Source of the DNA: Girardia tigrina | Lineage: Eukaryota | Direction of reading: 5' to 3' | Assembly: GCA_001938485.1 (NCBI GenBank) | Contig: MQRK01221138.1 | Location: forward strand, 1-55,892 | DNA length: 55,892 nt | Part shown: piece by piece, positions 18,214 through 55,167 of the stretch | Layout of the letters: each line of letters opens with the position of its first letter | How positions within the stretch are numbered: the stretch's first letter is position 1 | Translations under genes and position numbers: made by a program | Notes under the pieces: generated by a model | Databases searched by the model: none | What the model was told of the DNA's origin: nothing | The model's input: the letters and a program-made list of their open reading frames with translations, nothing else

Positions 18214-18559
18214 TTGTAAGTTTGTTGTTTGTATGCTGTTTAGATTTGTGACTCTCCTACTCAGATGGGATTGATATGTTATTTGATTGATTATTTGAAT
18301 CTAATGAAATTAATCTAATGATATTAATTTTATGTACTAATTAATTAAAGTTTGATAATTATGAATTTTATTAATATTTTCAGTAAACGATTTTAACTTA
18401 TTAAATTTAATATATTTTAAAAATTAATGTTTATTTAAAAATTACATAATGTCTTTTTATCCAATAAAATTATGAGAAATTAAAATGTAACATTAAAATT
18501 TCCTATTCATTGATTTTTTCATATTTGAATATTTAATCAAAAACTATATCAGTCAAAAA

Positions 18560-19004: not shown

Positions 19005-19295
19005 TGTGATTATCTAAGTATGAGGGAAATGTAAATTATATCTTTATGGAATTCGAAAATCAATCCCTCATATAAACATTCCTCAAATTCATAAGCGATC
19101 TTTAGCCGAATATTTCACATATGTCCTTTTATTTAACTAATAAACATATCTAAACGATACATATTAATATTAATTAATATACATTTATTTTCTTGAGATT
19201 CTTGTCACTAAGAAGAATGAAGATATCAAACTGAATTATATAGATTCAGGCAAAAAATATAGATCTATAAACAATATAGATTGAAGAACTGATTA

Positions 19296-19680
19296 TTTCC
19301 TACTTGAAAGGGTGACTGAGACATATGAAAAAGGTCACAATAGAGTACCAACCAAAAGCTTATTTTTGAGATAAAACTTCTCAATTTCAAGACAATCCAC
19401 TTTTTATATTATGCTTGCACTGATTGACAGTTTTATTACCCAGAATCCCCCCAGTCTTAAATCTAATACAGATGAAAGAACAAATCGTTCGCTTAGATTA
19501 TCATATGGTGAGAAATTTCAGTCGAATTGCATTGATAATGTTTCTGAGGGTCATGGGTTTTCTATTAATACTTAAATTGAGTAGAATGCATTTGAATTTT
19601 CATCTCAAAGATTAATTTTTGATTGGTTGGTTGTCTATTGTTATCTAATCATGTCTCCGTTACCCTTTCAAGTACGAAAC
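19296..19680. repeat. Imperfect inverted repeat (arms of about 90 bp)
   Basis: tttcctacttgaaagggtgactgagaca...caatag...ccaacca...tttgagat at 19296-19385 matches the reverse complement of about 19595-19680. Confidence 0.75.
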
Positions 19681-19698
19681 GATAGAGCTAATATATCT

Positions 19699-20198
19699 TA
19701 TTAAGAACACCAACGTGGGTTTTCGAACCTTTATTTTCAATACAATTTGAATTGTCTTTCAGTCAAGCTTTCGTAATTCGATATCGTTCTAAATTGATAA
19801 ATTTTAGTTAAGGTTTTTTTAATAAAAAATTATTCGAACAAATTTTTCATTATTTTCAGATTTTATTTTTAAAGTTCTAATTTTGTAATTTTAGTAATTA
19901 TTTTATCTACATATTACATTTATTTTAAAAATGATTTTATTTAAAGAAAGAACATTCCTTAAATTTAAAACTTAGTTAAAAGTTATTTACTTTATTTAAA
20001 TTTTTAATATTAAAATTTGAAACGATTTAATATTTTTAAATATCTTATGCTGTACTTTAAAATGCAAATTATACTCGAATAATTATTCATCGTGAACATC
20101 TAAATTATCAATTTTCCATATGGGTGGGAGAAGCACATTTCCAAATACTAAACTCAACATACAAAATTTAACATACCAAATTTAAAATATTCCTCGCA
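19699..20198 (-). mobile_element. Solo LTR (family B)
   Basis: Termini tattaagaa...ttcctcgca; flanks TATCT/TATCG (TSD with 1 mismatch); shared motif ccatatgggtgggagaagcac. It lies about 540 bp upstream of the SLC7 ATG. Confidence 0.75.
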
Positions 20199-20741
20199 TA
20201 TCGTTTTCTCAATTGGCAATTATTAGCTTCCGTTTGATGTTTGCGAGAATAAAATTGTTAGCTTTTAGTGTATTTTTACTTAATTTTTAAAAATTATGAA
20301 ATAAATTCACTTTCATTCAATGAGTTATTGGTAAAATGTTATTTTAATTTTCTCTAAGTCCAGTATTATATATTAAGTTTAATACACGGTGAGGATTGAC
20401 TTGATGATGGGATTGTAATCTCGAATTACGTCGTCTTTATTTTATCTATTAAATATATATTTTTATAAATATTGTACTTCTCCATTTTACAAAATAAATT
20501 ATATATTTTCTTGTTATAAATTTAAAAATAAAACACTCAAAAGTGCTTCAAGAAAAAATTCATTTACAAAATAATAAATAATAATAATTTTGTACTAATA
20601 ATAATTTGTACTATATTATAAACATTTGGAATAAATAAAGTTTTGTTTTAATGAATAACACATATCAAATCTGTAAAGCTAAAAACTTAATTTATTTTTG
20701 AATTGTTACTAGTATAAGTTGAACTCACTGATTTGAATAAT

Positions 20742-21195
20742 ATGAGTGCTAAAAAGTCGAAATCGACAGATAAAAATGAAGAAACTGTTGAACTGAAAAA
20801 AGAAATTACTCTTTTAAACGGAATTGGTATTATCGTGGGATCGATCATCGGCTCGGGAATCTTTGTCAGTCCGACTGAAGTTTTTATCAAGAGCGGCAGC
20901 CCTGGTTCTGCTCTCGTCATCTGGCTGCTGTGTGGAGTATTTTCGATGATCGGGGCCTACTGTTACATGGAGTTAGGGACGATGATCACACGATCCGGAG
21001 GAGATTACGCGTACGTGCTGGACGCATTCGGTCCGTTTGTCGCATTCTTACGGTTGTGGGTCGATGTGATTGTTGCCCGACCAGTCTCACAGGCGATCAT
21101 TGCTCTAGTGTTTGCCGAGTACACCCTAGAGGCCATGTACATTGGGTGCGTGTCCCCGATCATGGCCAAGAGGCTGCTGGCGGCTGCCTGTATAG
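20742..21195 (+). CDS. SLC7 L-type amino acid transporter light chain (LAT1/LAT2-like), coding exon 1
   Basis: MSAKK...LKKEITLLNGIGIIVGSIIGSGIFVSP...ELGTMITRSGGDYAY...FLRLW...YIGCVSP, including the Cys at the position used for the SLC3 heavy-chain disulfide. Donor G|GTACT, phase 1. Confidence 0.95.
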
Positions 21196-21250: not shown

Positions 21251-21376
21251 GTGTTTTAACTTTCATCAATTGCTATTCGGTCCGATGGTCTACGATTGTC
21301 CAGGATGTGTTGTCGTACGCCAAAGTATTTGCATTAATAATCATAATAATCACGGGAATCGTTAGATTAGCGCAAG
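21251..21376 (+). CDS. SLC7 transporter exon 2
   Basis: After a 55-bp GT-AG intron: [43 protein letters not shown]. Donor G|GTGATT. Confidence 0.93.
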
Positions 21377-22849: not shown

Positions 22850-24390
22850 AGCTGTATTATTGAACATATTTTGAAGTTTCATACTTCATCATCGACAATT
22901 ATTTGTAAAATATTTAAATATTGATTTACATATTTTTGTTTTTCGGGGCTGTCCATAAATGAAGTCATGGGATTTTAGCAACTTTCCAACCCCCTTCTCC
23001 TTCGTCACATTTCGTCCCAAAAGGCCTGACCCCCCTTCTACACTTCCCTTTTGTTGCCTTAAAGTGCTTCAATAAATAAAACTTGGGGGATTGAACTACA
23101 TGCATCATTCAGTTTTGTCGTCGATTCACTAAAATTTTTACGAGTCCACTGATCATATTTAATGAGTAGAGTCGAGTCAAAGTATTATAGTGATAAGAAA
23201 ATTCAAAATAAGAAAAAATTATAATACACTTTATTTATTCCATAGATTAATTCACAAAATTTATGCATCTCTATTCTCCCATGGCGAATGAAAGTGCTCT
23301 TTCATGGAATAAACAGGGAGAGCACGAATCTCTACATCAAGTTGAGTGAAGATACCATTCAGATCAAGGTCTTCTTCGTCTATTCAATCCACATTCGCTC
23401 CATTTTCTTCATTCGCAACTATAACCATTAGTTTAGGTTGACGACGTGCAGCGACCCTCTGTGGCTTGATGCGTTTTGGTGGAACAATAATCGATTCCTG
23501 TTTGTGGGCAACAGAATGGTTACGGAGCAAAACGAATGACGTAAAGTATGTGTGACATGTCTTGCAAATCCTATCACTAAGAACAGATTGTATTGATGGA
23601 CATTACAAGTCATATGGAATCGAGCGATAAGTATTTGAAAAGCGAGGAAGAATGTCAAAAATTAACAATTGTAATTCATAAAATAAATTTTGTATTGTAA
23701 TTTGTGGTATTAAAGAACGTTCATCATTTCGATGTGACGTCACATTCCCCAAATTACCCCCTGCCCCCTCGTCACAAATTTCTGATCCCCCTCCCCCTTC
23801 CTGTGTGACGTCATTTATGGACAGCCTCTTAATGGAAAATTTAAAAATATATTTTTCACTTTTTCAAGATTTCATGGGAAATTAATGACTAATTCTTTAT
23901 TATTTAATTTAAGATTTTGAGAATTGAAACAGTTTTACTCTTCCCATTTTGAATATTGATTAATGGATTCTACTGTCTTATCAATAAAAATGACTCACAG
24001 TCCTTCTCATTCTTTGAAATTTACAGAGATTCTTATTTTTACAATGAATTTAGTTAATAAGTATCCAGTATTTAAGTCGATCGACACGATGGTGAATGCT
24101 CACTAATCCGGGTTTTTGAAACACATTTTGTCGCCAATATTCGAGGTTTTCCACTTGTGACAATTAAATTTTTAACCAGTTTATTTGAGAGGAAGCTTAG
24201 AATTTCTGATGTCATTTAAACCACTCTGGCGCAACATATAGTCTTTCAAATTAAAAACAAAAAAACATTTGAATCAATATTTAAATATTTTACAAAGTTT
24301 TATTGATATCTACCTTATTTGAATAGATATTTGATAAAACAGATTAAAAAAATATATTTTAACATGTTTCAATCTTCATCAAGGGAAATA
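22850..24390 (-). mobile_element. Penelope-like element remnant (GIY-YIG endonuclease end plus pLTR pieces), interrupted by Zator
   Basis: Minus strand gives KFNCHKWKTSNIG...KTRISEH and ESFLLIRQ*NPLINIQ. The segment gtaaaatatttaaatattgatt at about 22905 is inverted at about 24270. Decayed TGATGAAG..GAAA hammerhead-like motifs occur at about 22865-22892 and 24361-24382. Confidence 0.7.
22945..23828 (-). mobile_element. Zator-like DNA transposon, internally deleted
   Basis: TIRs ggggctgtccataaatga / tcatttatggacagcctc. The minus strand encodes IPYDL*CPSIQSVLSDRICKTCHTYF...RIKPQRVAARRQ...IDEEDLD, which I recognise as a Zator transposase C-terminus. Confidence 0.7.
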
Positions 24391-27043: not shown

Positions 27044-27699
27044 TTGTGCTAAAGTAAAAAAAATTATAAAAACCTACATTTCATTTAGAACAAAATAATA
27101 GAAAAATCAAAATTAAAAACTCTATCTATGAATTAAACCCTTTTAAAAAGTCAAATGAATTACGACTTAGAAAACTATAGATTTCGAATCGATTTTCTAC
27201 TTTAAGAATTGTTAGATTTAAAAATGTAGAAATATGTCAAATTTACTGTAATAAAAGTCAATCAATATGAAGTAAATCAACACAATGTAATCAATTTTAA
27301 TTTTTGAAAAGTAGAAATATTTATTTCATTTATTAAAAATAATTTCAGAAAATTGTTAAGATCACGTTTTACATCTGAAAAGACAAATAATCATTTTAAT
27401 ATTCACACACAATTTTAAAATATTACTTTATAATATTATATATCATTTAAACGCATTTTAAGATAATAATTATGATTTTGGTACAAAATGGAATGATCAT
27501 AAATAAATCCATTTTTGAATTTATAATTTATTAAATATAATATAAATAATACTGATCAAAATACTCTTTCATTTTATAATATTATTTTTATTCAATGAGT
27601 AATATTTAAAATTTTTTTCTTATTTTTTTTATTTTTTATTAAGTTTCATAAAAAATTATGTTTTATATAAGAAACAAAAGATTATTTCTTAATAATAAA

Positions 27700-27895
27700 C
27701 TTGAAAAAAGATGACAATTTTTTATTATAAACAAATAAACGCCACTTAAAAATATTACTTACGTGATTGCGTAATCATTCATTTCTTATATAAAAGCAAT
27801 AAAAAAGAACATAATCTGATGATGACAGTTAAACAGTCCAAATATATTATCCTAAAATATATTTTTAAATGACGTTTATTTTTTTATTTAATAAT
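27700..27895 (+). mobile_element. Penelope-type pLTR fragment with a decayed hammerhead ribozyme and an adjacent inverted partial copy
   Basis: 27765-27890 is homologous to 49446-49575. It carries CTGATGA t gacag ttaaa cagtc CAAA tatatt at 27816-27848 (GAAA mutated to CAAA). 27700-27755 is the reverse complement of the pLTR segment seen at about 49550-49600. Confidence 0.75.
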
Positions 27896-28269
27896 AAACG
27901 TTTTATTTAGATCAGCAATTGAGATTTGCAGAAATATTATACTCTTAATTTCTCAAGATATATTCTAGTGCTATAAATACATGTCTTCAAAAATCTGCAT
28001 TCATATTTCTTTATAATCAGCAACACACTTTCGTATACATGTTGTATTTAATAATTTGTTGTTTATAAGGGATATTTTTACATAATATTTATTAATATTA
28101 AAAATCGAAATCTCTACTGTAAAATATTTAATTTAAACCTAAATTTCTGGGTGCTGACAGACTTTTACAATAAGACACATATCGTATTACAGAAAAAAGT
28201 ATATATCTATATATAAATAAATAAAAAATTAAAAAGACTTCAATTTCTATTTTATTTGGTTTACATTAA

Positions 28270-32634: not shown

Positions 32635-32903
32635 GTGATACCGCAAACTTGGAAAATGCATTTGCTGGTTCCTCCTCTAATCCTGGTGACTATGCAATGG
32701 CATTTTATGCTGGACTCTTCGCTTATAATGGTTGGAATTACCTTAATTGCTTAATTGAAGAAATGAAAAATCCTCGTCGAGATTTACCACTTGCAATATT
32801 TATCTCTATGATTCTTATAATTATCATTTATGTTTTAACAAATATGGCTTATTTTACAATTTTAATTCCATCTGAAATCTTAAATACCAAAGCAGTAGCA
32901 GTG
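32635..32903 (+). CDS. SLC7 transporter exon 3
   Basis: atag|GT GAT: DTANLENAF...AFYAGLFAYNGWNYLNCLIEEMKNPRRDLPLAI...AVAV. Donor |GTGAGA. Confidence 0.95.
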
Positions 32904-35182: not shown

Positions 35183-35383
35183 ACCGTTGCAATACGATTA
35201 TATGGGGTTATGTGGTGGATTATGCCTATTTTTGTGGCTATGTCTACTTTTGGAGGAGTTAACGGAAATCTATTGGCTACCTCACGAATATTTTTTGTGG
35301 CTGCTCAAGAGAACCAAATGCCCATGATCCTGGAAACAATAAATATTAAATATTTCACTCCAGTTCCTTCAGTTTTATTTGTT
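35183..35383 (+). CDS. SLC7 transporter exon 4
   Basis: tatag|TVAIRLYGVMWWIMPIFVAMSTFGGVNGNLLATSRIFFVAAQENQMP...TPVPSVLFV. Donor |GTAAGA. Confidence 0.95.
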
Positions 35384-37931: not shown

Positions 37932-38081
37932 AGCATCGCTTCGTTGATTTATTTGTGCTTTTCGGATATCAATATTTTGATAAATTACATGGGATTCGTA
38001 AACTGGCTAGCGATAGGGGTCGCTGTTTTCACTGTTATATGGTTCCGATACAAATTGCCAGAGAAAGAAAGGCCAATTAGA
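37932..38081 (+). CDS. SLC7 transporter exon 5
   Basis: tttag|SIASLIYLCFSDINILINYMGFVNWLAIGVAVFTVIWFRYKLPEKERPIR. Donor |GTAAGA. Confidence 0.95.
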
Positions 38082-38118
38082 GTAAGAAATAATATTACAA
38101 TTTTCAGATATATTATTT

Positions 38119-38169
<51 letters not shown>

Positions 38170-40567
38170 NNNNNNNNNNNNNNNNNNNNNNNNNNNNNNN
38201 NNNNNNNNNNNNNNNNNNNATATATATATATATATATATATGTAAAGTAGTTATACATTTTAGGAATATTCAGAAAACGTTATTGCAAAAATAATTTTTA
38301 AAATATTTACATTTCTTGATAAATGAAAAAAATTGCAGTGTTCGTTAAAACTTCGTTCTTCGAGGAAAGGATATAATAGCTATATTATGATTATATATCC
38401 TAATTTAATCCGTTTTCTTTAAAGACTTTATTTAATGAAATTTCAATACAACTAAAGAATAAAGAAATATTTATTATTAATCAATAACAACTACTAAAAA
38501 TTTATTAAATTTTTATGAGATGTTTTTGGAAATTTCTCTTTTCAGGGATTTCATCTTCATTTTCCATTGATTTTCTAATCAAATGTTTTTCTAAATCTTC
38601 AACCTAAAATCTTTTATGTTCTTCATTTAATTAATTGATCATACTTTTGTTTTTTTCTTTGAAATTTGTGACATTTCCGCTCAAGGATTAAACATAAATT
38701 ACAAAAGTACATTGTTGCACACCTAGTTACAATAAAACTTTTCAAACGTGCAGCCATTGGCTTTCAAGAGTTTGGCATCATTATTCTTTAGTTTTTTCAT
38801 ATTGAAATGAAACAAGAAATTTCTTTCCTTACTTATATCAAAGGAAAGTCTTAAAATCAAGAGTCAGATTCTAATTGATATTCTGTGATTCCATTTTTTT
38901 TGGATGTTAGTAGCTTGCTTTTACTTCGTAAATGTAATAAGTTACAATTAAGAAGGTCAAGTGTCTGTCGAATAGGTAGATTTAAAGGTTAATGAATCTA
39001 AGATTAAATGATTAAAAGAATATTGTGAATCTTATTTAGATCAATAGATTTAAAAATCTCAAACATTTTCGAGTTCAGTTGTTAAAGTATCAACATTGTA
39101 CCGGAAAGTTCAATTTTGTCTTTACTCCGCACGTTTTGGTCTGCTTATCAAGAAAGTAAGACTCTTCGTGAAAAACAATTCAATGAGATGAAAAATTTTA
39201 ATACACGCAATACACAGTGAAGATTAAACATATCATTTAAAAAAGCGAATTGATAAAATTAAAAAAAAAATAAATGAAAATAAAAATCTCAAAAAATTTT
39301 TTGCAAACTGCTATCATTATTTTTCAATACTTTCGAATAACTTTAATAATTAACTGATTTAATATTTGAAGTTATTATTATTTTAAAACTACATTAGATG
39401 TTTATTGAAAATTATCGATTTCTGTTTGATTGTTTCATTTATTTCACCAAAACATAAAATAAACTAATTTATAGAATAATTTCTTCATCCTATGATTTTA
39501 TTAGAGAAATGGGAAACTGGAGCATAAATCATAGAACCAACAGTTTTAATATAATATCAAAATTAATTTTAAATGGTTGTATATAGCCTTTGTCATCTTG
39601 GATGGAAATAACAGATAGTTTAACATGAATTTTTCAATAAATTTACAACACACAAATTTTCTCAAATTAGTTTTACTCTCTTTGTTAATAGATAAAGGAA
39701 ACGGCAGACGAAAGGCAATGGTATTTTTCTTTGATATCTGTAATTTGATTATGTCGGTCGTAGCAGACTTGATTTGTGTTTCAATATAAATATTTTCTAA
39801 CACTTGAATTAATTTTCTTGTGAAAAATGTTTTTTACAACTGTGAGGATAATTAGATGTATATAAGTATTTATAATAACATATTTCTATTTATAATTATA
39901 ATATATTAATGGATCTAAAGTATTCTTAATAAAAATCTCCTGTGTTTTAATATTCAGAAATTTTGTAACAGATTCAAATTATTGTGTAATTTGTTATTAA
40001 AAATAAATGTTACTTTTTATTGAATAATAAAATCGTAATTTTATAATTTCTAAAAGTTATGTATCAGTACTCTATTTGCGCACGTACGGTGAAATGATCT
40101 ATTTATTATAGTACATAGTAATTAAAATAAATAAATGGATTATAATAATTACTTTTTTCACTAATATCTTTTAAAATTCTTATGCAAAATAATTTTTTTA
40201 CTTTTCAATAAGTTACAATTTCTCATTTATATCTTAATTAAATAAAAAACATGAGTTAATTGTCAATGAATAAATTAAGGAACTAAATATGCCTCCTTCA
40301 TGAGTACATTATACAATTAGAATAACTAAATGTATAATACTAAGAAGGATATCAATTTATTAAGAAATGACTTCAAATTTCCTTAACGAAATGGTTAATT
40401 AATTAACCATTCATTTCATTTTAGCGTCTTTGCCTACAAACCAAAACGTATCATATTAAAGTACATAGAATTCAAATTTGGTTCAGAAACACTCACTAGC
40501 GTATTTGTTTAATGCGGTAAATGCTTACCTTTTTATCATTCGTCTAATTTTTTTGAGTTATTAGGAT

Positions 40568-41440
40568 TTTGAGGAGCTCATAAATTTTTGAATTTTAAAA
40601 ACGTAAAGCTTAAAACATTAGAAAGATATTTCATTAATAAATTTTATAATTGTAAATATTTAAAAATACTTCATTAAAATAGATTTTAAAAATTGTTGTT
40701 GAAAAAAATTTTAAAATAAAACTTCAAAAATAAAATTTAAATTTATCTAAAAAGGTTTAACATATAGAATTTCACGATTTACATAAATTAAGCTAAAAAC
40801 CATATTGTACTTTAATTTAATTGAATATAATAATATAACGTTTAATAAATTAAAATCATATTTGATTTCATTGAATATAAATTTTTGTTAGAAATTATAA
40901 AATTAAAACTATATTTTAATGTAATATCATTAAATGAAGCAACAAAATCATATATCACCATTTAATATTTAAAATTAAGATTAACGTTAAGAAACTAAAA
41001 TCGAATATATGAAATTTAAAAAATAATGGCAATTATTTTTTTACAATTTAAAGGAGCCATTTTAAAATAAATTTTTTATTAAAGCAGAATATTTCGACGG
41101 AATATCCGTCATCATGAGATGATTCTGATTCTAGCTGTTTAATTAGGAGTACCATTTAAAGTAATTTTTAAGGTAATAAGAAATTATATTAAATTGAAAA
41201 TAGAATACGTAATAAAATTTAACTAAAAATTGTGACAAGTAATAAAATTAATTTGAAACTAAAAACACCAATTTGTAAAATTAAAATTTATATCGATATT
41301 TATATTTATTATTTTCATTTATAACTGGTTTGTGCAAAATAAGAAAACATCGTTCCTCAGAAATTTGTTTAAAAAATATTTAATTGTTATAGAAATAAAT
41401 TTTAATGTTATGAATTCTTTTATTAATCACGAACCTATCA
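40568..41440 (+). mobile_element. Solo LTR (family A, diverged)
   Basis: The 3' end gttcctcagaaatttgtttaaaaaat...ttgttatagaaataaat...gaacctatca matches the LTR ends at 15060-15163 and 6720-6834. Flanks AGGAT/ATGAT (1 mismatch). Confidence 0.6.
41085..41123 (-). ncRNA. Decayed minimal hammerhead ribozyme motif
   Basis: Minus strand reads CTCATGA T GACGG atatt CCGTC GAAA tattc: same stem II as the 49499 copy, with a core G>C change. The downstream aatggc...aattgccat is shared. Confidence 0.5.
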
Positions 41441-42795
41441 ATGATTATATTTTAAATTAAAATCACAAAATGAACGGTTAAGGTATTAAAATTATCCAGA
41501 AATTAAAGAAAAGTAATTTTTAACTTTGAAAAATATATAATTTAATATAAATATTAAATATCAATCTGCTAATAACACTAAATCGTCGCATACTAATATT
41601 GTTCGTGCGAGAACGAGCGCAGCGCGATCGCGGAGCCCCGATGTTGGGAATGCGGTGACTCTAGGTCGAAGGAATTTCTTTCAAAATTTTTATTTTTTAA
41701 ATTCGAAACACAATTTTCGCATCAACAGCTGCCGATCCGAAAAAAAACAAAATCCTTTTTACAAAACTCCATCAAAATTCGATTTCAGCAACAACATAAA
41801 TATTCATTATTTTTTTTATTTTGTTTCCCGCCAATAATTTTTCACAAACATTTCATTTCAAAAGGAATTTCAGCTCACATATACAAACTTTAAAACTACC
41901 ACACACACTATTTTGATCTATTTAAATAACTGATCCATCACAATTTTTTTTAATGTCACTTATTCGATTAAAACAAAAATTAAAATTCAGATAAAATCAC
42001 TGGACAATCAAAGGCTTCGACAGTTCGTGAAAAATCATTTTAATTATTTTTTTTAATTTATATTTTTTTTAAATGCCATTTTGGCAACTTTTTTGTTTTT
42101 ATTATTTCTTTCTTTTTTTTTGATTTAAACAATAAATTTAACATCAGATTCCTTTCTTTAGTATTGATGATGATAAATGTACAAAACTATTCAGAAATTT
42201 CTTTAAATGAGTACGAGAGTACATCACAATAATAAAAATCAAACATTTATCAAAAATTCCTTTATAAATTCAAATTCATCAGAGTCGAAACAGTATTCAT
42301 TGCATTTTCCGTATTTGAAAAGTAACAAATAATTATTTGAATTTTTTCGACTTCGAATAAAAGATCTGATATTAATTGTGGATTAAAATTCATGTCCATC
42401 GATTACAATCGATTGAATTGTCGAATGATGTTCGTTGAAGACTGTAGGGACTGATTGACACGAATATAGATTTGGTTAGGGGGTTTTATGATTAGTTGAC
42501 GCGTTTTTGAGAGACTCTGAGAGGGAGATAGATACGTTCGATTGCTTTGATTCAACTCTGACTGAAATCAAATTGGATGATCAATGATCATTAATCGATC
42601 GACCACAATCATTATTTGGCCTTTCGTACCATCTCATCCATTCTTCATCTGGATCATCTCTCCCCAACGGCAAATCAAACAAATATTATTTATCATACTT
42701 TTTATAAAAAAATTTGAAGGATGTCGGAAGGTAGTAAAAAATTTCAAAATTGTGAATTTTGGTCATTTTCAAATTTATTTAATAAAAGAATAACA

Positions 42796-43300
42796 ATGAT
42801 CGATGAGGAGCGGCTTGTCCAAGTCTATAATTTGGACGACGATTATTTACCTTCAGTTAGACATTTGTACATTTCTGAATCTTCAGTCAAAAGTGTCATG
42901 TATAGAAAGGAAAAAACCGGCCAAATGCCAAAAGGCAAACATGGATGGCACCGAAAACGGGTAGTGTGAACCATGACAAATATTATGAATTTTATTATGG
43001 AACTTTCGAACAGTTGTTCGGAGCGGCACATTACCTTTTACAAGATAGTGCTCCTATACATTTAAAATAAATTCCATCTTATTCACTATTCCTAAATCTA
43101 ATAGAGGCATTTTTTCGATATCGAAGAGATCATCAGGACAGAAATAACAAATTATCGGACCTCCTGACAATCACTAGTCAGGAAAGATTTGCCGTACTAA
43201 AAGAGAATATAGAACTCTTGCTGCCAAATAGGACAAGAAGGATATGATGAATTATTATAGTCATACTAAGAAATTCTTTGTAGACTACTTATAAAGGCAG
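42796..43300 (+). mobile_element. Tc1/IS630-like transposase remnant
   Basis: HTH-like MIDEERLVQVY...ISESSVKSV...GWHRK and IPSYSLFLNLIEAFFS (compare LPPYSPFLNPIEEFFS). Confidence 0.6.
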
Positions 43301-44151
43301 AAATATATGATGATTGAAGGGATAAATTTATATATGTAAATAAATATATATTTTAATAAATAATAAATAAAATTCTTACTTTCAATCGATGCATAAAAAT
43401 GTAAAATTTCATAAAAATCCATTGATTATAAATAGTAATATTGGTATTAATTTGCAGTTAATAATTGATCTGGTATGCTATTTAATGATTTATGTAGTAC
43501 ATGAATAGGACAAATTCGTAATTTGACCTGATTGAAAATAACTGGTATTATTTTAAAATTCTAGAACCTAGAATGAAGAGTTCTTATGAAGAGATAGTTA
43601 AAATTTTCGATTTGCCGAATAATTTATAATTTAAAATTTAAAATTTTGACAAAAAGTACATAATTATATAAAACAAAAACAGATTTTAAAATCTAAAAAA
43701 TCTAAAAGTTGATATATTCAGTAGAAATTTTTAAAATAAGAACTTTAAAAGAAATCATAAAATAAATAAAAGTTTTTGCATAAGTTTATAGTATCAAGCT
43801 ACTACAAAAGTATTTTTAAGAAATTAAATAGTGTTTTTTACAAATTAATTTTAAAATTAGATGCTTATATAAATGAAAACAAAATAATTTTATGGTGCTT
43901 AGAATATATTTTAAATACACAATAAAAAGTTGGATTAAATATAAATTTCAAAAAAAGTTATATTGATAAAATTTAAAGTAGAATAAAATTTATGAGACAA
44001 AACGAAAATTTTAATTAACGAAAGTTTGTTTGAAAATTTCTAGTTGTGATATTAATAAAAAATTTGTGATATTAATAAAAATTTTGAGCTATGAGTCTAT
44101 TGATAATGAAAGTGGCATAAACGCTACTTTCAACCTTTAAATTGGAAAACT

Positions 44152-45061
44152 GGTTCCACGACAAAACGCCACGAACAAAAACGCCGCGTGACAAAAACGC
44201 CGCGGACAAAATAATTTGAAATGAATTAGGAATTTTAGGAATTAAATGAAATAATTTTTTATTAATTAGGAATTTTTGGAATAAATGAAATAATTTGTTA
44301 TTAATTAGGAATTTTAGGAATAAAATGAAATAATTTATTATTAATTAGGAATTTTAGGATTAAAATGAAATAATTTGTAATGAATTAAGAATTTTAGTAA
44401 TAAATTGAAATAATTTGTAATGAATTATGAATTTTAGGAATAAAATGAAATTATTTGTTGTATTTTAAAATTATTACTATCATTATTATATTTTTATTTT
44501 TTATTATTATAATTAGATTTACTGTTATTATTTTGATTATTTATTTATTTATTTATTATTTTTTGAATTACTATTACCATTAATATTATCAATTTATTAA
44601 TAATTCATTTCAAATTATTTGATTTTATTCCTAAAATTCCTAATTCATTACAATTTATTTGAATTTATTACTAAAATTCCTAATTCATTACAAATTATTT
44701 CATTTTATTCCTAAAATTCCTAATTCATTACAAATTATTTCAATTTATTACGAAAATTCCTAATTCATTACAAATTATTTCATTTTATTCCTAAAATTCC
44801 TAATTAATAACAAATTATTTCATTTTATTTCTAAAATTCCTAATTAATAACAAATTATTTCATTTAATTCCTAAAATTCCTAATTCAATTCAAATTATTT
44901 TGTCCGCGGCGTTTCTTTACGCGGCGTTTTTGTTCGCGGCGTTTTTGTTCGCGGCGTTTTTGTCATGCGGCGTCTTTAACACGCGGCGTTTTTGTTCGCG
45001 GCCTTTTGTCCGCGGCGTTTTTGTTCGCTGCGTTTTATCCGCGGCGTTTTGTTGTGATACC
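44152..45061. mobile_element. Foldback / MULE-type non-autonomous element
   Basis: Perfect 9-bp TSD TGGAAAACT; GG...CC termini. The arms are made of about 15-bp (acaaaaacgccgcg) and about 40-bp (aattaggaattttaggaataaaatgaaataatttg) repeats in inverted orientation. Confidence 0.9.
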
Positions 45062-45811
45062 TGGAAAACTATCTTAGATATCATAATTTTTGCAGTGTAG
45101 TTAATTTAATTTAACCAAATGATTTATATAATTATTAAATTTAGTTTTTTTTAATTATTACATAAAATTATGAATTTATATGAACAGGTTTATATTTAAG
45201 TTTATATTTAAGTGCGTTAAATATGAAACAATAAATGGTTTTCGAAATGATTTGAAGAATAAATTAACAACAATATTCAGGATTTAAACATTATTGGTAA
45301 AAATATATCAAATTGATTAAAATAATGTAACAAAGCCTTTTTTAATTCGACGCGGTTTTATCAATGTAATAATTTGAATATTAATTGTTTTGAATTATGT
45401 CAAATTAAAGCTGTTAGGAATAATCAAGTCAATATTTAAATAAAAAACATTGTTAATTGGTTAAATATATATTTATTTGTTATTTCAATTTTAACGGTTG
45501 TCTGAGTTCCATCATTCCGTGACAAATTAATATTAAAATGTCATTGACAATAAAACAAAAATATTTTTCTTAGTAATTATTTTGTTGTTTTTGCGTTATT
45601 TAATTTAGTAACAAAAACAATCAAAGTATGGTTAATTTCAAGATTAATTTGGATGATTAGTATTTAGTAAGGTTTTTGACACTTTGTAAGTTCTATGCCT
45701 CATATAACCTGATGTAATTACTACATAAGACAGTTAAAAATTTTCTTACTATTAGAGATTTAAAAAACTAATGAAAATGTAATAGAATAATTTCATCACT
45801 ATAATCTATAT

Positions 45812-46320
45812 CAACTATATAACTCGTTCAAATAATTCGGTTTACGTCTTTCTCTTTGAGGTCTGCTGCTGATTCCCGATTCACTTTGCTTGAAACTCGA
45901 AGCTGATTCAATGTTATTGTACAAAATATAATCCGAGTAAGAGTTTTGCGGCAGGTCTGGTTGTCTTGGTCAAATATCTGCTATATGCCGTGGGCCGCAA
46001 AAACCATCACAATTTATTAAGTACTTTTTTTGATCAAATTTCCTAACGACAACGCCTCTTGCCCATTGCTTTGTGCATTGCATACTATTTTCAGGCTTTA
46101 CCCAGACAAACTGTAACTCGACAAAGTCAGTCTTTACCCTATTGCGAACTGGCTCCCTTTAAATTCTGTCGATTATCTATAAACCGACTGGAACGGACTT
46201 GTAAAGTGCTGAACTAGGTGTCTCCTTTCCGTCGGACGGTGTATTTTTTTATAACAATAAGGCTTCCATGATACTGATATTCGATCTAGACGTAATTCTC
46301 TTGATTAGTTCTCTAAGAGA
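45812..46320 (-). mobile_element. Gypsy integrase C-terminal fragment (same lineage as Gypsy 1)
   Basis: NTPSDGKETPSS...VWVKPENSMQCTKQWARGVVV...GPRHIADI...RPQRERRKPNYLNE. Confidence 0.75.
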
Positions 46321-47442
46321 ATTGATATGCTGTAAATACGACGCTGGAAAAACACTTAAAACGATTTCAAGTGAGCTCGATGTGAACTATAAAACCGTCT
46401 TTAGTGTTGTGAAAGTTTATAAAGTCAGTGGTAGAATAAATTCACTACCAGTCCGTGGTCATAAAACTCCAATTCTTAACCAAGAACATGTGGATTTTAT
46501 TAAAAATGAAATCGAAACTAATTGTTCGATAACACTTGGATTGTTAAAAAATGACTTGGGATTGGAAAAAAACATTATTGCTTCAAAATCTACAATTTAT
46601 CGTTCAATAAAAGCATTTAATTTTTCTTTGCAACGCGTAAGTATTGTCCCAGAATCTCGAAATACAGCATCGTGTATAGCATCATATTTGAGTTTGCAAA
46701 TTACTACTTGTCTTTAAATGAAGAAGATATTATTTTTTGGATGAAGTGGGTGTTAATTGTTCAATGAGAAAATCTTATGGACGAAGCCAGCTAGGAACGC
46801 CTGCTAAGAAAACAGTTAGAACAATTCGCAGTAAAAACTTTTCAATTTCGGGGGCTATTTGTAAAACGGGGTTGTTAAAATATGAAATAATGGAAGGCTC
46901 TAATAATGGAAACACTTTTATTTCGTTTATAAACATGCTGCTTTCTTTCTTGGCGGACAATAACTATGAAAAAAGGTTATTATAATGGATAATTGCGCAA
47001 TATACAAAGTTGGTGGAGTTTGTGAAGCAATTACGAATGCTGGACATGTTTTAAAATTCCTTCCGCCGTATTCTCCACAATGCTTTTCAAAATGCAAAAA
47101 TGGAATCAAATTTAAAAATGTTGTATGTGTAAGTAAATTGATGGAAGCTATTCAAACAGGGAAAGATTCAATCACATCAGAAGATTGTTTTGGGTTTTTT
47201 AATGATACTCGTCGTTATACTTTAAAAACAATGAGACGTGAAGAATTTTGAGTAAATAAAACTTAGGAAGAAGAAATATTTTTAAATTAATGTGTATCAT
47301 TAATGTTGAATATATTGTTGTTATAACGTTTATATTTTTTTAACAAAATAAAGTTTAATTTTCTTTTTTTTTATTATCTGATTTTAATTGAAACGTTTCT
47401 GATTTTAATTGAAACATTTCTGATTTTAATTGAAAAACCCTG
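46320..47442 (+). mobile_element. Tc1/IS630-like (DDE_3) transposon, 5'-truncated
   Basis: HTH GKTLKTISSELDVNYKTV; FLDEVG; MDNCAIYK; FLPPYSPQ; three tctgattttaattgaaa subterminal repeats; terminus ...ccctg|TA. Confidence 0.88.
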
Positions 47443-47580
47443 TATGGGCCGGATTCAAAATCTAAATTTTCATAATCATCTTGAAATTTTTCTTTAAAAT
47501 TTCAAAACTGCCGTTTCCACTAAATTTCTCCAAAATATCGAGTATAATTTTTAAATCGCTTATCATTGCCCGGATAGCTT

Positions 47581-47716
47581 GTAACAACGAATATCAAATC
47601 TGCAAAATTTATTCTTCAACACATACTTTTCTAATAGATATTATTTAAACAAAAATACATCCTTATTTTCATTAATTTTTTTCCTAATATTGTAAAATAA
47701 CTAACATGTAACAAAA
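47581..47716 (+). repeat. Dispersed repeat, homologous to about 10660-10830
   Basis: Shared aaatctgcaaaatttatt...atagatattatttaaacaaaaatacatcc. Family unknown. Confidence 0.7.
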
Positions 47717-47869
47717 GACCTAATTTTGGGGAAGATTAAGATAATGATTTCATTTATTTGTTATTGTTCCCATTATACATAAATTGTACTTAATATGTTC
47801 TCAACGTTCTTGGATAAATATTCAAGCTATTTTACAACTTATTTTAATTTTTTTACAAATGTAGTTTTA

Positions 47870-49280
47870 AGGGTTTTAGGACTTTTCCGCATCTGACTTT
47901 TCCGCACACAGACTTTTCTGAAACCATATTAAAATATTTTAAAAACAATTTAAAAATATTTTGAAAATATGTTAAAAATATTTTGAAAAAAACCCCTGTT
48001 AAAATTTAATTATTATTATTTTACATTTCTTACCAATTTAAAATTTGTTGTAAAAGTAAATTATAAAATATTTATAAACAATTTGGTAATGAATAAAATA
48101 TTTAATTAATAATTGGTAATCCACTTAAATAATAATTCTTATTTTACTTAATAAATAATTCTATTTGATATTCCTATTTTCAAATTCTTTTTACGAGCAA
48201 AATTTATTAATAATTTATTTATTAATAATGATATTAAAAAGTATCGAATTAATAATTTGTTTATTTAGTTAATATCATTTTTAAATTTATCACAAATTTA
48301 AATTCCAAATCAATATGCAGTTTTCAGTTAGCTCCCGTGGAAATCAGGTTTTAATATATGAAGAATTTGAGTATTTAAAATTAGAGAAAAAAACAATTTT
48401 ATAACATGGAGATGCAGATAACTGTCATTCGACTTTGAAAACGGTGGACAACAATATAATTTCTGGTCCAACTAGTCACTCCCACGATTCCTGTCCACAA
48501 GAAGCAACTAAGACAGTGGCCTGGAAAGAAATGAAAGCCGAAGTTAAAGACATTGTAGTCAGCACAAGAAACGCAATATGAAAAGTTCTTGCGGAGCTCA
48601 ACAATGATATTTTAATTCAGATGCCAAAAAAATCATCTATGGAAAGAAATCTAAGAAGATTCAAACAGAATGCTATTTCCATTCCTAAGAATGCAAATTT
48701 CTTAATTCCCGAAACATATGAATAAATTATTTTATACGACTCTGGTGTTAATGATGTGGATCGTATTTTGATGATCGGAGATAGAGATTTGTTGTCACAG
48801 CTAGATAACAAAGACGAAATTTATTGAGATTGAAACATATGATAAATCATCTTCAATATTTTATCAGGTATAATCATGATAATGTCAAGTGGGAAATTTT
48901 TGTATACCCTGTGTGTTTTTCTTCTTCAGAAGAAAGATGGAACAATCTATACACGCATGTTTCAAATCTTAAAAAATTTCCTTCCAAATCTAGAGCCGCG
49001 TAAAATCTTAGTTGATTTCGAAATAGCTTGTATGAATGCTGCTCGTGCTGCATTTTCTTATGCAGAAGTAAAAAGATGTTATTTTCATCCTTGTCAGAGT
49101 TTTGGTTCGAAAAGTTAACTCTGGTGTTAAGGAACTGATTAAGTCAATGGCTGCATTATCTTTTGTTCCAGTTAATGATGTTGGGAAAGTTTTCCAAGAC
49201 CTCATTCAAATTTTTCCTGACAATGATAGTTATAATGAAAGTATTACTTATTTTTCTGCCATTACTTATTTTCGAAATAT
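47870..49280 (+). mobile_element. MULE/Mutator transposon remnant (FLYWCH plus transposase)
   Basis: SSRGNQVLIYEEFEY...WRC...HSH; IFYQVY; ILVDFEIACMNAARAAF...CYFHPCQS; ALSFVP. Terminal gacttttccgca repeats. Confidence 0.85.
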
Positions 49281-49289
49281 ATTATCCTA

Positions 49290-49620
49290 AAATGTGAGCA
49301 TAAATGATTTTAAGATTTTGTGCAAGCATTTTAAAAATTATTGGGAGAGAGGGTCATGTGAAGCACTGTCGATAAGATCATGTAATCCTAAAAAACAGCA
49401 CTCTCAACTAATTTGTTAAGAGCTTTCGATTAGACTTGCGCAATTGATTGCATTATCATTCATTTCTTATATAAAAGCAATAAAAAATAACATAATCAGT
49501 GATCTGATGATGACGGTTAAACCGTCGAAATATATTATCACAAAATCTATTTTTTAATGGCGTTTATTTGTTTTCAATAAAAATTGCCATCTTTTTACAA
49601 ATTTATTTAAAATTAATTGT
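49290..49620 (+). mobile_element. Penelope-like element 3' end (GIY-YIG tail plus pLTR)
   Basis: NVSINDFKILCKHFKNYWERGSCEALSIRSCNP matches the PLE endonuclease C-terminus FKIL...EALxIxxxNP. It is followed by a hammerhead-containing repeat. Confidence 0.78.
49499..49541 (+). ncRNA. Minimal type I hammerhead ribozyme (Penelope-type)
   Basis: Stem I GTGAT/ATCAC; core CTGATGA plus an extra T; stem II GACGG-ttaaa-CCGTC; GAAA; palindromic stem III AATATATT. Predicted cleavage after AUU at 49536. Confidence 0.8.
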
Positions 49621-50212
49621 TGAATGATTACACGAGGTAATAAAAAATTGTAAAGATCGCAGGTTATTTATATGTTTCATCAAAAGCATAAAGAAAATTA
49701 TTCTAATAATATATTAGAAAGAAAATGACTCGAAATGTAGAGTTATTTAAAATTGTAAACTAACATTTATAAAATTATGTAAAATATATTTTATTTCATA
49801 AATATTTTTAAAAAGTTCATTATTATATGACAAGCTTGATATAAAATTTACATTGTAAATAAAATGATGTAATACTGCATGTAGCATAATATGCAAAAAA
49901 TGCTAAACAGTCAAAATGTGACACGTATCAAAAAACTGAATACAATTTAATAAAAAACAGACAATTTAGTCAAGCAATCATAAATATACTACTCCAAAAG
50001 CGGAGTAATTGAATACTGATATGAGAAGCACTTAGTCTGTCACAACTAATAGTGTAAGGTAATGACCCGAAAAACATTTTCTGACTAAATGTATTAAAAT
50101 AGATACATGCTCATTGCTCTTGCCAAATTAAAAACACTAAAAGGAATCAGAAACTTTTAAATATTTGGTGGAACGATTAATGATTATGCGTTTATTGAAT
50201 GGTAAATACTAC

Positions 50213-50969
50213 TATTGGGTTCTTGATCAAAAGACATTATCATGAACACAAAAATTTATTTCTATAACATTTTGAATTTTTTAAACAAATATTTTTGAGG
50301 AACTTTTGTACTTTTTTTACACAACCAATATAAATAAAAATAGATATAAATAAAAATATGGTTAGTAAATTTTTTACAAATTAAAATTCTATATTTTCTT
50401 TAATAAAAAATTATAGTGAATTAAAATTTTGTCACAAAGATTTTGTTGCGTCTTATTAATTTTTCAATTTTATGGTATATTTAAATTTACCTGTTTCTCA
50501 ATTACATTTTCCAAAAAATTAAAATCGCATTTTTTATTTAAGTCGAGTTAATGGTTTTACAATTATTTTTTAATTCCAATTTTAATTTCCAAAAATTATA
50601 ATTACTTTTTCCCAAAAAAAATATAACCACATTTTTAATTTACTTTGATTTAAAAGTTACCAAAATAGTTTAGTTTACTTTTATTTCGCAAATAAAATAT
50701 CAAACTTAAATTACTTTTTATTTTATTTCAAATAAATATTTTCATCAAATTTGAAATTAACTTTTTTTACTTTATAATAAATCTTTACATAAATCTTTTA
50801 ATAACCCTACCGTAAAATTTATTTTATTTCTTACTTAAATTAATTTTTTACATTAAATTTCTGAAAATCTTATGTTAACATATTTATAACAATATTTTAC
50901 GGAATGTAATTGTTTATTTAATAATTAGATAAGATTCAAAAATTTTATATTTTATAAACGCTCCCAACA
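50213..50969 (-). mobile_element. Solo LTR (family A), highly similar to 14398-15163
   Basis: Perfect TSD ACTAC (50208-50212 and 50970-50974); TGTTGGG...CCCAATA termini on the minus strand. Confidence 0.93.
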
Positions 50970-52559
50970 ACTACTAAAATATTTACTTATTTGATAGCCT
51001 ACATTGTAACGGTATTTTTACATTTCTATTAATTTATAAATCTATTTATAAATTAGCATTCTTTAAAACTTAGTGGCCAAAATTACCAAAAAGTAATGTA
51101 ACTAGTAAATCAAAAAATTAAATTTTATATATCCATTCTTTATGCAGATAGAACTCTACTTTACCAACAAAGTTTTTAAAATTTAAAAAATTTTAATTAA
51201 AAAACAATAAAAAATTAATATAAACTAATAATTTATAAGTAGATCTTTTTCAATTAATATTGCTCAGGAACTCCGAATTTTCCATTTTTCTCATTTTGGG
51301 ACCATAAAAAGTTTTTTTTGATTAAATTTTCACCTAATCATTTATTGACATCAAAAATGAGTAAGTGTGCAAAATTTGAATAAAATTGATTAAATAAAAA
51401 GCCTTCAAAAGTAAGTTTATTATATCGAATGTAAGCTAATAAAAAGAATGGAAAAAGCTTAAGCAGACATTTTCTGTCATTTTTTATGTCATTTGTTTTG
51501 AAGATTTGGTAATCATTTTCTCATTTATAATTGATTTTGAAAAATAATTTTCTCTTAGTGTTAATTAAATACTTCTTCAATTATCTTTCGGCAAACTCTA
51601 GAATATGGATTAACTTTGAGTTTCAAATAATCGTAATGAAATAATCGTTTCTGTTAGTAGCGTTGATGCCATGTCCGTTGTCCGAAATTTAAGAACTCAT
51701 TTTTATCGCAAAACTTTATTAAAATATATCGATTGTTATGTATGTAAACATTTTTTTGATTTATTATTTAATTTTTATTTGTTTTCCTTTAAAGATCATT
51801 TTTAATTTTAAAACTTTTGGTATTTATTTAACTTTTTAAAACTTTCAAATTTAAAAACAATAATAAATTATTTTGGCGTAGTGCAAATTTTAACTAACTC
51901 ATCATAGTTTAAAAATAAAAAATAATGTTTCAAGACCATGATGCTAACAATTTAAATCAAATTTCTAAACATCATAATATATTATTAATTTATTAATTCT
52001 ATTATCGATATAAAATATAATTTGATATTATTAAAAAATAATAAACATATTTTTGAAAAGGAGACTTCAATATTAATTCGTCTTTTTAGATAACATTTAC
52101 ACATTTTCATAATTATCTAGATTTGGAATTTGAGATTGCATTAATTTAAAGCATTTTCTATCATTTAAATAATATTTATTATTTTAAATTGTTTATTAAG
52201 TTATTCTTATAAAACAATTTTCAGGTATGACCGAAAATCCTTTAAATTTAAAAACTAATAGATGCTGATGATGAATCGACTGAAAAAAATTCCTATTTAA
52301 TATTTATGATTAAGTTGAAAATTTTTTAAAGCATTTTAATTGCATGATGAAGCGATGAAATTCGTAGTGCACCGTATAAGATTTTATTGAAAATCAAAAT
52401 TATATAAGTCAGTCACTAGGGTATTGATCCATTAAATAGTTGATTAAGAATGTAAAGTTTTATCTAATAATAGCTGCTCCATCGAAATTGTCAAGAAATT
52501 AAAAATGTAAATTGTTATTTATATACTAGAGATCATCACTTTGTTTATAAAATGGAAGT

Positions 52560-53010
52560 TGTTAAGAGAAGTCACACATTTATTACATTCACATTTTTAA
52601 TCATCTCTATGATAATCAACAGTATTGCTTTCTCTTAAATCCATCACTCAATTTTTAATACTTCTCCTTACAATCTGAACTAACTTGAAGAAAATTATTT
52701 TATTTAAAACATGTAATTTAAATTTTATTGGCTAAAATAAAATTACTTTTTATAATCATTTTTAAACATTAATTTGATTTTAATTATTTAAAAATTCACA
52801 AAAATAAAATCAATAAAATTATTTAAAATTTACAATAATAAAAATTAAAAATTGAATATTAAATCTAAATTTGAATAAATTAGTTTCAGATTATAAGAAT
52901 TAAAATATTAATCATCCATCTGGTTAGGAGAGGCACCATCCCAAATCAACACACAACAGTTAAACATACAAACGCTACACAAAAACATCAACACACAAAT
53001 ATTCTTCACA
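52560..53010 (-). mobile_element. Solo LTR (family B)
   Basis: TGT...ACA termini with a perfect TSD GAAGT; motif ccatctggttaggagaggcacc. Confidence 0.88.
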
Positions 53011-53849
53011 GAAGTCATGTTTTTTCTATTATCAGTTTAACTGCTTCCTTCACCAAGACTTGGAAAAAATCTCCAATAAATCAAAATCAATTAATTTTAA
53101 ATCGATTATTTGTAATTTTATCTTTGAAATAAATACATTTTTTTCATCCTTTAGTTAATTTATTTTTTTCAGAATAGTTTTGCTAAAATCGTGATATTTT
53201 CTTTGTATTCATCAGTAATCTCTCCTATCCTTGGTCAGTTGATTAAAGTATTGGTTTACTGAGGATTGATAGACTATTTATATATTTATCACACATTAGC
53301 TGTATTAACGTAGCTTTTACAATACACAAAATTGGGTTTCAAGAAATAGTTTTTAAAAACTGAATTATAAAAAAATCAGTTATTTTTAGTTCTTTCCATA
53401 TGGCTTCTTCACTAGTTTCATCGTTCATATTTTTCTTCGTTTTTCAGATCTAAACCATCTTTTTATTAAGAGAGTTCAATCTTATTCATTATATTTGATA
53501 AGAATCTAATAGTTATGTGACTTCTCTTCTCTAAACCTAATGTTTATCTGCAAAAAAGTCTTCCTAATTCTAGACAGCGGACAAAAATTGTTCTTAAAAT
53601 TGTTTTAGCTTTCTGAGTACTTTAAAAATTTCATAATTTAGAGAAATTCCAAAAATTATCTTTGAAATCTCGATAATCAATTATATTAATATCATAATTT
53701 AAAATATCGTTGATTGACAGTAATTGGATAATAAATTTGTTTGCTTTAAATTTTGAAACTTTTTAACCGATTTCACATACGGCATAATATCGAGAAAAGA
53801 GGAAAAGTTATTACAAAAAAATCTTTCAAAAATAAGTTTTTAAAAAACT

Positions 53850-54790
53850 ATCTTAAATCTTATGAAAATAATAAATGTCATTTACATACTAATTTGGTGT
53901 ATCCCCGTTTTTTAATTTGAATTTAGTTTATCTGGATCAATGTATAAGTTTGAATTGAATTTGAATGTATAATTTGAATTTATAAAGATTACAAATTGTT
54001 TTAAATAAAAAATAGATTGAATTGACGCTTTAACGTTCTTCAACAATTCTTTTGGAGAAATATCGGACGAATTTTCTTCCAACTTTTTCTTTATATCATT
54101 TATTTTCTCGTTTTTCAGAACTTTAATAGCAATAACTTTTCCTTCTAGTATTTGAACAAATATTTGCATTCCGTCTCAAAAGATTACAAAATTCGAGAAT
54201 TTATTTAATTATATTTCAATTGCAGTGAAATCCAGAAAAAATTATTAGTTATTTGGTTTCTTTAAAAATTCTTCAATATGCCAGTAATGTCTGTAAAAAC
54301 AAAATTGTAAATTATTTGTGTTTTGGAATTCACTTTAACTTGTTTCCAAGTGCCTAATATACAGTAATCTAGGAAGCCGAATAAATGGTATCAACTTTAA
54401 CAGTTAATTATTTAGAAACCGGAATTATAAAATTATTACAAATATTAATAATACAATGTATAAGTGCCAAGCGTTAAGTGTTACGCCAAGAGAGAATCAC
54501 AGTACATTTTAAAATTGCATTGGACACATTATAATTGTTTAGTTTTTGTTGGATTTTGAAAACCAGTTCGTTAAACTCAACAAATAATTAAAAACCAGTT
54601 CGAGCAAACTGCACTATCCCCCTCTAGCATCATTGTCATGCGAGCAATCGCGGCCAAGTTCTTTTTAAGAGAATTTTCATATGGTAAGAAAGGTATGCAT
54701 TGATCCAAATAAACTAAATTCAAATTAACAAACGGGGATACACCAAATTAGTATGTAAATGACATTTATTATTTTCATAAGATTTAAGAT
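53850..54790. repeat. 96-bp near-perfect inverted repeat (53850-53945 / 54695-54790)
   Basis: Direct comparison shows only three mismatches. Confidence 0.92.
53912..54169 (-). pseudogene. Ubiquitin-like ORF fragment
   Basis: MQIFVQILEGKVIAIKVLKNEKINDIKKKLEE aligns with ubiquitin [32 protein letters not shown]. A second piece, ISPKELLKNVKASIQ, resembles [15 protein letters not shown]. No LRGG. Confidence 0.6.
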
Positions 54791-55082
54791 TATCGATTAA
54801 ATGAATTCTACTTATGGTCCTTTATAACAAAAGCAATGGTACTTAAAAGGATAACTAATGATTTTTAGATATTTCTGTTTTAATATAAAATTTTGATTAT
54901 ATGAAAAATGTAATTATCTAATTTCTATCCACCGGCAAGGAATCTGTGAACTCAATAAAAAAATCTTTCATCAATGTGAAATCTCCAAAAATGGTTTGAA
55001 ATAAAATAATATTATATATTTGTTTAGTGATAATTTTAATATACTCATAATGTATTTATTTAAATGTTCTCTTTCTATGTAG

Positions 55083-55167
55083 GTTAATTTGGCTTTCCCA
55101 ATTATTTATTGTGTGGCGACTGTTGTTCTTTTAATACTATCATTTATTGGTGGTCCTTATGAAAGCT
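55083..55167 (+). CDS. SLC7 transporter exon 6 (gene continues beyond the window)
   Basis: tatgtag|VNLAFPIIYCVATVVLLILSFIGGPYES continues RPIR|VNL in phase 0. Donor T|GTAAGT. Confidence 0.9.

Follow-up and report, generated by a model that had tools for sequence, protein, structure and literature searches.

The hammerhead motif at 49499-49541 of the analysed window (55,892 nt of the Girardia tigrina contig MQRK01221138.1) is best explained as the terminal-repeat motif of a short, 5'-truncated and highly repeated copy of a Penelope-like element (PLE), which in the pre-mRNA of the surrounding SLC7 gene is most likely carried along as a passenger and cut seldom or not at all. We put the probability of this reading at about 0.85. 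The copy adds one more example to an already known kind of element, and in it the start-codon-in-hammerhead geometry of the element PAc (discussed below) is found to hold in a planarian, far from the vertebrates. As a single locus it matters little, since solo hammerheads on truncated Penelope copies have been reported by the thousand in animal genomes. The abundance of the family, however, makes this genome suited to a statistical test for avoidance of intact hammerheads in sense orientation within introns, and the outcome of such a test would bear on whether PLE hammerheads cut in vivo.

Table 1. Features of the window that bear on the hammerhead motif, its element and its host gene (window coordinates).
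Feature	Position	Strand	Basis or remark
SLC7 exon 1	20742-21195	+	alignment
SLC7 exon 2	21251-21376	+	alignment
Inverted tail piece beside intron-2 copy	27694-27767	-	typical Penelope arrangement (PMC8557442)
Second pLTR copy, intron 2	27761-27897	+	hammerhead decayed: GAAA altered at G12, stem II mispaired, 7-nt stem I deletion
SLC7 exon 3	32635-32903	+	alignment
SLC7 exon 4	35183-35383	+	alignment
SLC7 exon 5	37932-38081	+	alignment
SLC7 intron 5	38082-55082	+	17,001 nt, GT..AG, same strand as hammerhead
Third, more distant pLTR relic, intron 5 antisense	41012-41131	-	core altered at G5
Broken Mutator-like (MULE) transposase remnant abutting Penelope fragment	48300-49270	+	PF10551, E 6.1e-8
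3' half of second hammerhead, 22 bp, without CUGAUGA	49272-49293	+	253 nt upstream, 20/22 identical
C-terminal tail of Penelope-like RT/GIY-YIG ORF	49288-49433	+	tblastn; frameshift near 49393, stop 49431-49433
3' UTR / pLTR part, ORF stop to hammerhead	49434-49498	+	
Decoy hairpin	49495-49508	+	upstream bases pair with first five core bases; predicted probability 0.24-0.54, six context windows
Type I hammerhead	49499-49541	+	direct sequence reading and covariance-model score of 41.7 bits
Stem I	GTGAT 49499-49503 / ATCAC 49537-49541	+	5 Watson-Crick pairs
Core CTGATGA (CUGAUGA)	49504-49510	+	sequence
Probable start of next ORF	49510-49620	+	geometry compared with PAc
Extra T (U) between core and stem II	49511	+	sequence
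Stem II	GACGG 49512-49516 / CCGTC 49522-49526	+	5 Watson-Crick pairs, 5-nt loop
GAAA, then TATA	49527-49530 (GAAA)	+	sequence
A-U palindrome, 6 nt	49530-49535	+	monomer: 2 bp and 2-nt loop; 6-bp helix III only between two copies
NUH = AUU (H = U)	U16.1 at 49535, U17 at 49536; predicted cut 49536/49537	+	sequence
SLC7 exon 6	55083-55167	+	alignment

Structure and detection of the hammerhead motif

An earlier reading made from the sequence alone had described complete core nucleotides with perfect 5-bp stems I and II, and our own reading of the bases confirmed this: the core CUGANGA, the GAAA and an NUH triplet whose H is not G are all in place for a type I hammerhead. The marks of PLE pLTR hammerheads are found as well, namely the extra base between positions 9 and 10.1 (49511), the G10.1-C11.1 pair (49512/49526) and a palindromic 15.2-16.2 segment with loop 3 (49530-49535). 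The motif had further been called a minimal Penelope pLTR type I hammerhead with a dimer-type palindromic helix III. The identification stands, but the motif is not strictly minimal, as a 2-nt palindromic loop 3 is kept. The 8-mer AAUAUAUU is palindromic as claimed for stem III, but A14 and U17 within it are core bases, so that the helix III usable between two molecules is the 6-mer at 49530-49535, made of A-U pairs throughout. A stable helix III is absent from the monomer, which has only 2 bp over a 2-nt loop, as expected for the dimer-type subclass. Stem II is predicted to form with a probability of 0.96-0.99 and stem I with a probability of 0.03-0.64 depending on context; stems I and II were counted as formed, with helix I open. 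A possible extension of stem I, pairing 49480-49489 with 49548-49558, is probably not a feature of the family, because some of the positions involved are ones at which this copy departs from the family.

The nucleotide at the predicted cut site is U17, which was found in 24 of 81 related motifs of the same spacing among the matches listed (A in 40, C in 13 and G in 4). Hammerhead cleavage is slower at U17. GUC has been named the best cleavage triplet. No near-fixed difference from the family occurs at 49536 among those listed, and there is little to suggest that U17 arose by decay of this particular copy.

A strict descriptor, with at least 5 Watson-Crick pairs in both stems, found one site in the window and none in 300 order-2 Markov simulations (both strands), while a relaxed descriptor found 10 sites in the 300 simulated windows. 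Even if only 3 pairs are asked of each stem, 49499-49541 is the sole hammerhead with a canonical core on either strand of the window. A scan with hammerhead models, which the sequence-only reading had proposed as a check, gave a divided result. The Rfam hammerhead models had no match at the gathering score over the window, nor at E<=10 over 49300-49700, where five weak Rfam matches are AT-rich noise. A custom covariance model (R1), on the other hand, scored the motif at 41.7 bits (E 3.8e-10), the best of its 12 matches in the window. R1 was built from 39 motifs of other genomes, outside the window, chosen by spacing, H not G and at least 3 pairs in stem I from 97 distinct hits among the matches listed; its score is partly circular, since these training motifs were fetched with a pattern derived from 49499-49541 itself.

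The Penelope-like element carrying the motif

Judged from its sequence, the motif belongs to the pLTR of a Penelope-like retroelement, present as a 5'-truncated 330-bp copy at about 49288-49620. The order of its parts, with a GIY-YIG tail followed by a 3' UTR, the hammerhead and about 100 further bases, is as expected for the 3' end of such an element. That the hammerhead lies behind a Penelope GIY-YIG tail had been claimed before, and RT-bearing relatives of the tail bear this out. Bases 49291-49392 code for the end of a GIY-YIG endonuclease, and after a frameshift the ORF stops 65 nt before the hammerhead. The tail matched six RT-containing proteins (tblastn E 1.5e-9 to 1.5e-6), and the RT domain PF00078 is carried by all six longer relatives, drawn from 484 candidates. 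Two of seven phmmer matches to the tail were kept as GIY-YIG proteins (P0004 and P0006); the other five (P0001, P0002, P0003, P0005 and P0007) were dropped as spurious, being multi-stretch matches without a GIY-YIG match. The 42-aa piece of the tail alone matched no Pfam family, and a search of the window with the six relatives found no RT domain at the locus.

The ATG at 49510-49512, 26 nt 5' of the predicted cut, probably starts the next ORF, and the element ends at about 49607-49620. A similar N-terminal peptide is encoded by the antisense relic at 41012-41131, in the same frame as this ATG. Because the extra U of the hammerhead is the U of this likely start codon, conservation of the hammerhead may partly be coding.

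The 22-bp half copy of a second hammerhead meets the GIY-YIG tail at a short microhomology, and either a template jump or an internal deletion of a tandem could have produced it. A target-site duplication is not favoured as the origin of this repeat, because the depth level of the adjoining MULE remnant fails to resume behind the Penelope fragment. The remnant belongs to a moderately repeated family (summed depth roughly 3,000-20,000 in run X1), and its 3' part is absent behind the fragment.

Copies and abundance of the family

Three copies of the family lie within this one SLC7 gene, two of them sense and one antisense, so that no particular cause has to be sought for a copy lying sense in an intron. 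The partial-tandem and inverted layout of Penelope-type elements, with many truncated copies, is seen here in the half copy, in the inverted piece at 27694-27767 and in the sequencing depth. Four sequencing runs were compared, as assembled contigs. In the two DNA runs of the same species, the summed contig depth was 75 (X1) and 22 (X2) over the unique flank and reached 1.9 and 1.2 million, respectively, in the hammerhead bin; these values, about 26,000 and 56,000 times the unique flank, are not a copy number but mark a very abundant repeat. The raised depth spans about 49274 to 49600. Contigs of the family extend the endonuclease upstream of 49291, showing that the 49288-49620 copy is 5'-truncated, and the ends of other contigs at 49493 and 49536 suggest that there are subfamilies differing in stem I.

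Among the near-fixed private changes listed, none falls in the 43 nt of the hammerhead and 11 fall in 274 flanking nt, a comparison of low power (P(0)=0.18; Fisher p=0.37). We see no sign in the sequence that the hammerhead at 49499-49541 has been selectively retained.

The motif in the SLC7 pre-mRNA

The six plus-strand exons are collinear in alignment to Schmidtea mediterranea slc7a-7 (P0016; 66% over exon 1), and their lengths preserve the reading frame. The earlier placement of the hammerhead on the transcribed strand of a 17-kb SLC7 intron 5 was correct, with 11.5 kb between the 5' splice site and the predicted cut, and 5.5 kb between the cut and the 3' splice site. An SLC7 relative with 87% identity (P0011) has a predicted C-terminus that is a DDE transposase, and is probably a gene-prediction chimera.

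Several other elements and relics lie in or near the gene. About 300 nt 5' of the SLC7 start codon there is a decayed hammerhead-like motif (20396-20437, + strand; R1 E 0.01; C3 and A15.1 changed) with no convincing endonuclease tail adjoining, and a weak hammerhead-like relic with deletions at the stem I junctions lies antisense in intron 2 (22859-22899, - strand; E 0.088). Intron 5 also contains a Tc1/mariner-type transposase in three frameshifted pieces (46205-47251, + strand; HTH and DDE_3) and, antisense, a short ubiquitin-like frame that is possibly a pseudogene piece (53912-54175, - strand; PF00240 E 0.015, below cut-off). Two adjacent broken pol-like regions (11218-14422 and 15121-18251, + strand) resemble, by eye, Ty3/Gypsy protease, RT, RNase H and integrase. 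A 300-bp repeat at 14870-15169 recurs in opposite orientation at 50207-50500 with 95% identity, and weaker copies are found near 6.7 kb and 41.3 kb.

In the course of events that we propose for the copy in intron 5, the template would have been a tandem or read-through transcript. Reverse transcription would have begun about 100-110 nt past an ORF start in it, and the cDNA would then have been extended back through the hammerhead as far as the endonuclease tail. The cut site lies within the DNA copy, so the hammerhead was presumably uncut or re-ligated in the RNA template. In the parent element, folding of the motif would require two repeats to pair into a double hammerhead, or the help of an element protein; alone in a 17-kb intron, it would be left without helix III and without a partner. 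Stems I and II formed with the core open are predicted for 0.0005-0.01 of the molecules over seven windows. The double hammerhead, at -19.0 kcal/mol, is predicted to be less stable than both two monomers (2 x -11.6) and an inactive dimer (-30.8), these energies leaving out tertiary contacts. We infer that the hammerhead is inert in the SLC7 pre-mRNA. Three points run counter to this: the core and both stems are intact, whereas the two other SLC7 copies have decayed; U17, as noted above, is not readily taken for decay of this copy; and in PAc a motif of this type can be activated by a protein (PMC11167929).

The alternative that survives best, itself unlikely, takes up the last of these points. 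Whenever an active family member produced its RT/endonuclease, this protein would bind the retained ORF start behind the hammerhead and fold the motif, giving an occasional cut in the intron that splicing mostly survives. In the PAc report, cleavage of the hammerhead required the PAc protein, for which the RT start site is proposed as the place of binding (PMC11167929). The copy at hand retains about 100 nt of the matching ORF-start region, and contigs of the family occur in X14 and X3, two runs that may be RNA. However, PAc insertion needed the first 172 nt of the ORF (PMC11167929), as against the approximately 100-110 nt, with private changes, that are present here. Moreover, the PAc assay was carried out at 500 nM RNA and protein, and no RNA-seq reads were reported to end at the PAc site (PMC11167929). 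In X14 and X3, the cut site is spanned by contigs that come from other copies, although this weighs little because the type of these runs is guessed.

A broader proposal, which we consider decidedly improbable, is that solo Penelope hammerheads stand by the thousand in the introns of this animal as latent cut sites, which the element's RT/endonuclease would switch on in trans upon de-silencing, with host pre-mRNAs such as that of SLC7 being cut. If this were true, transposon activity would be coupled to host RNA cleavage, and SLC7 would be cut at 49536/49537 or, via the half copy, at 49283/49284.

There is very little likelihood that the hammerhead cuts the nascent pre-mRNA by itself, as a monomer or a two-transcript dimer, with less splicing of exon 5 to exon 6 or less mRNA as the result; the sequence-only reading had suggested a co-transcriptional cut that could affect this splicing or the transcript yield. 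The core is intact on the sense strand, a fast ribozyme in an intron has been reported to block splicing (Fong 2009, cited in PMC2995048), and Xenopus introns are described as depleted of tandem retrozymes (bioRxiv 10.64898/2026.07.22.740005). On the other hand, helix III cannot close over a 2-nt loop, the window is without a second intact motif, and the predicted dimer is unfavourable even at standard state. The effect on splicing or transcript yield is thus unsupported, as a partner is needed, this is the sole canonical core in the window and the two other copies are mutated in the core. Published Penelope hammerheads are also described as inactive when single (PMC4209133) or without the element protein (PMC11167929). 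The single S. mansoni min-HHR was inactive and its dimers weakly active (PMC4209133), and a review describes PLE hammerheads in general as likewise inactive singly and of low activity as dimers. As to the consequence of a cut, intronic hammerhead cleavage is reported not to reduce splicing: as cited in PMC2995048, splicing survived hammerhead cuts in two studies and failed only with a fast HDV ribozyme (Dye 2006, Fong 2009). Furthermore, 42-44% of Xenopus retrozyme copies remain intronic (bioRxiv 10.64898/2026.07.22.740005).

Even less probable is a one-and-a-half hammerhead, in which the intact motif would act as the enzyme on the upstream half copy in a type III-like fold and cut at 49283/49284 instead of 49536/49537. 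The full substrate strand (6-nt palindrome, U17 and stem I strand) lies on the same RNA and could form all 6 pairs of helix III and 3 of helix I, or 5 of the latter if a bulge is allowed. But the constrained fold is 9.5-12.9 kcal/mol above the ensemble in eight of eight settings (probability 2e-7 to 8e-10), and substrate-like sites are common in this AT-rich gene, numbering 15 with the half copy and the motif's own site included. Finally, a chance arrangement in AT-rich DNA, for which the missing Rfam hammerhead match speaks, has a negligible probability and was rejected on the evidence of the 300 simulated windows without a strict site, the expected position behind the GIY-YIG tail, and the homologous copies in the window and in the contigs of the sequencing runs.

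Comparison with known systems

The motif resembles those metazoan PLE pLTR hammerheads whose helix III is small and palindromic (Cervera and De la Pena 2014, PMC4209133) in being of type I with a 5-bp helix I, in its unpaired base between A9 and G10.1, its G10.1-C11.1 pair and its palindromic 15.2-16.2 segment, and in its position in the terminal repeat, with mostly solo copies on truncated elements. It differs from the strictly minimal form described there by retaining the 2-nt palindromic loop 3, and from the Schistosoma motifs, with their stem II of 7-8 bp, by a stem II of 5 bp (PMC4209133). A literature search over titles and the starts of abstracts found no description of a planarian Penelope hammerhead family, although the supplements of PMC4209133 may list one, and no paper on the orientation bias of hammerheads in introns was among the matches listed.

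With PAc, a Poseidon-clade element of Anolis carolinensis (Frangieh et al. 2024, PMC11167929), the copy shares an ORF start at the beginning of stem II, a cut 26 nt downstream and a genomic copy ending about 100-120 nt into the ORF. Transferred to this locus, the RT start of PAc at +111-118 would fall at about 49621-49628, near where the 49288-49620 copy ends, and the PAc authors regard unprocessed RNA as the main insertion substrate (PMC11167929). PAc, however, is full length and active in vitro, whereas the present copy is a decayed 330-bp fragment without RT. Placement in the Penelope/Poseidon clade is suggested by this geometry and by the endonuclease region of the relatives, and not by an RT tree. 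By eye, there is no Zn-finger linker between RT and endonuclease in P0004, P0006 and the C-termini of P0128-P0133, which are relatives and not the element itself.

Like the animal non-LTR retrozymes (bioRxiv 10.64898/2026.07.22.740005), the locus has a PLE-derived type I hammerhead and two hammerhead pieces a few hundred bases apart, but unlike them it forms no tandem array, the sequence after the two pieces diverging beyond 22 nt and only one motif being complete. A non-LTR retrozyme was rejected because there are no tandem units each with a complete hammerhead. Conserved intronic ribozymes are single-copy and have a stable fold. With those described in PMC6765202 (amniote intronic hammerheads and the HDV-like ribozyme of CPEB3), the locus has in common a motif of self-cleaving type, here predicted, on the sense strand of an intron; it differs from such gene-associated ribozymes in being one among very many repeat copies, with no shown conservation of the locus (PMC6765202). 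Nothing in its sequence appears to mark 49499-49541 as a domesticated intronic ribozyme.

Related motifs at other loci

Pattern scans fetched at least 106 loci, with metagenome matches estimated at about 520. None among the fetched loci is of this family, the best DNA match being 40 nt over the hammerhead itself. In three among these at least 106 loci, the end of a Penelope-type ORF lies immediately 5' of a motif built in the same way; Penelope-type ORFs followed by a hammerhead were seen in L072 (- strand), L073 (+) and L005 (+). L072 holds a full element, whose two hammerheads are separated by 2,647 nt and whose 838-codon open frame starts within stem II of the upstream hammerhead. A second core-like match was present in 60 among the at least 106 fetched loci; it has no control and was not used as evidence. 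Many metagenome contigs among L001-L103, with a GC content of 31-44%, carry the same hammerhead architecture, with stems that vary in a compensating manner and triplets that are mostly GUA or GUU, and these contigs are probably animal host DNA in the samples.
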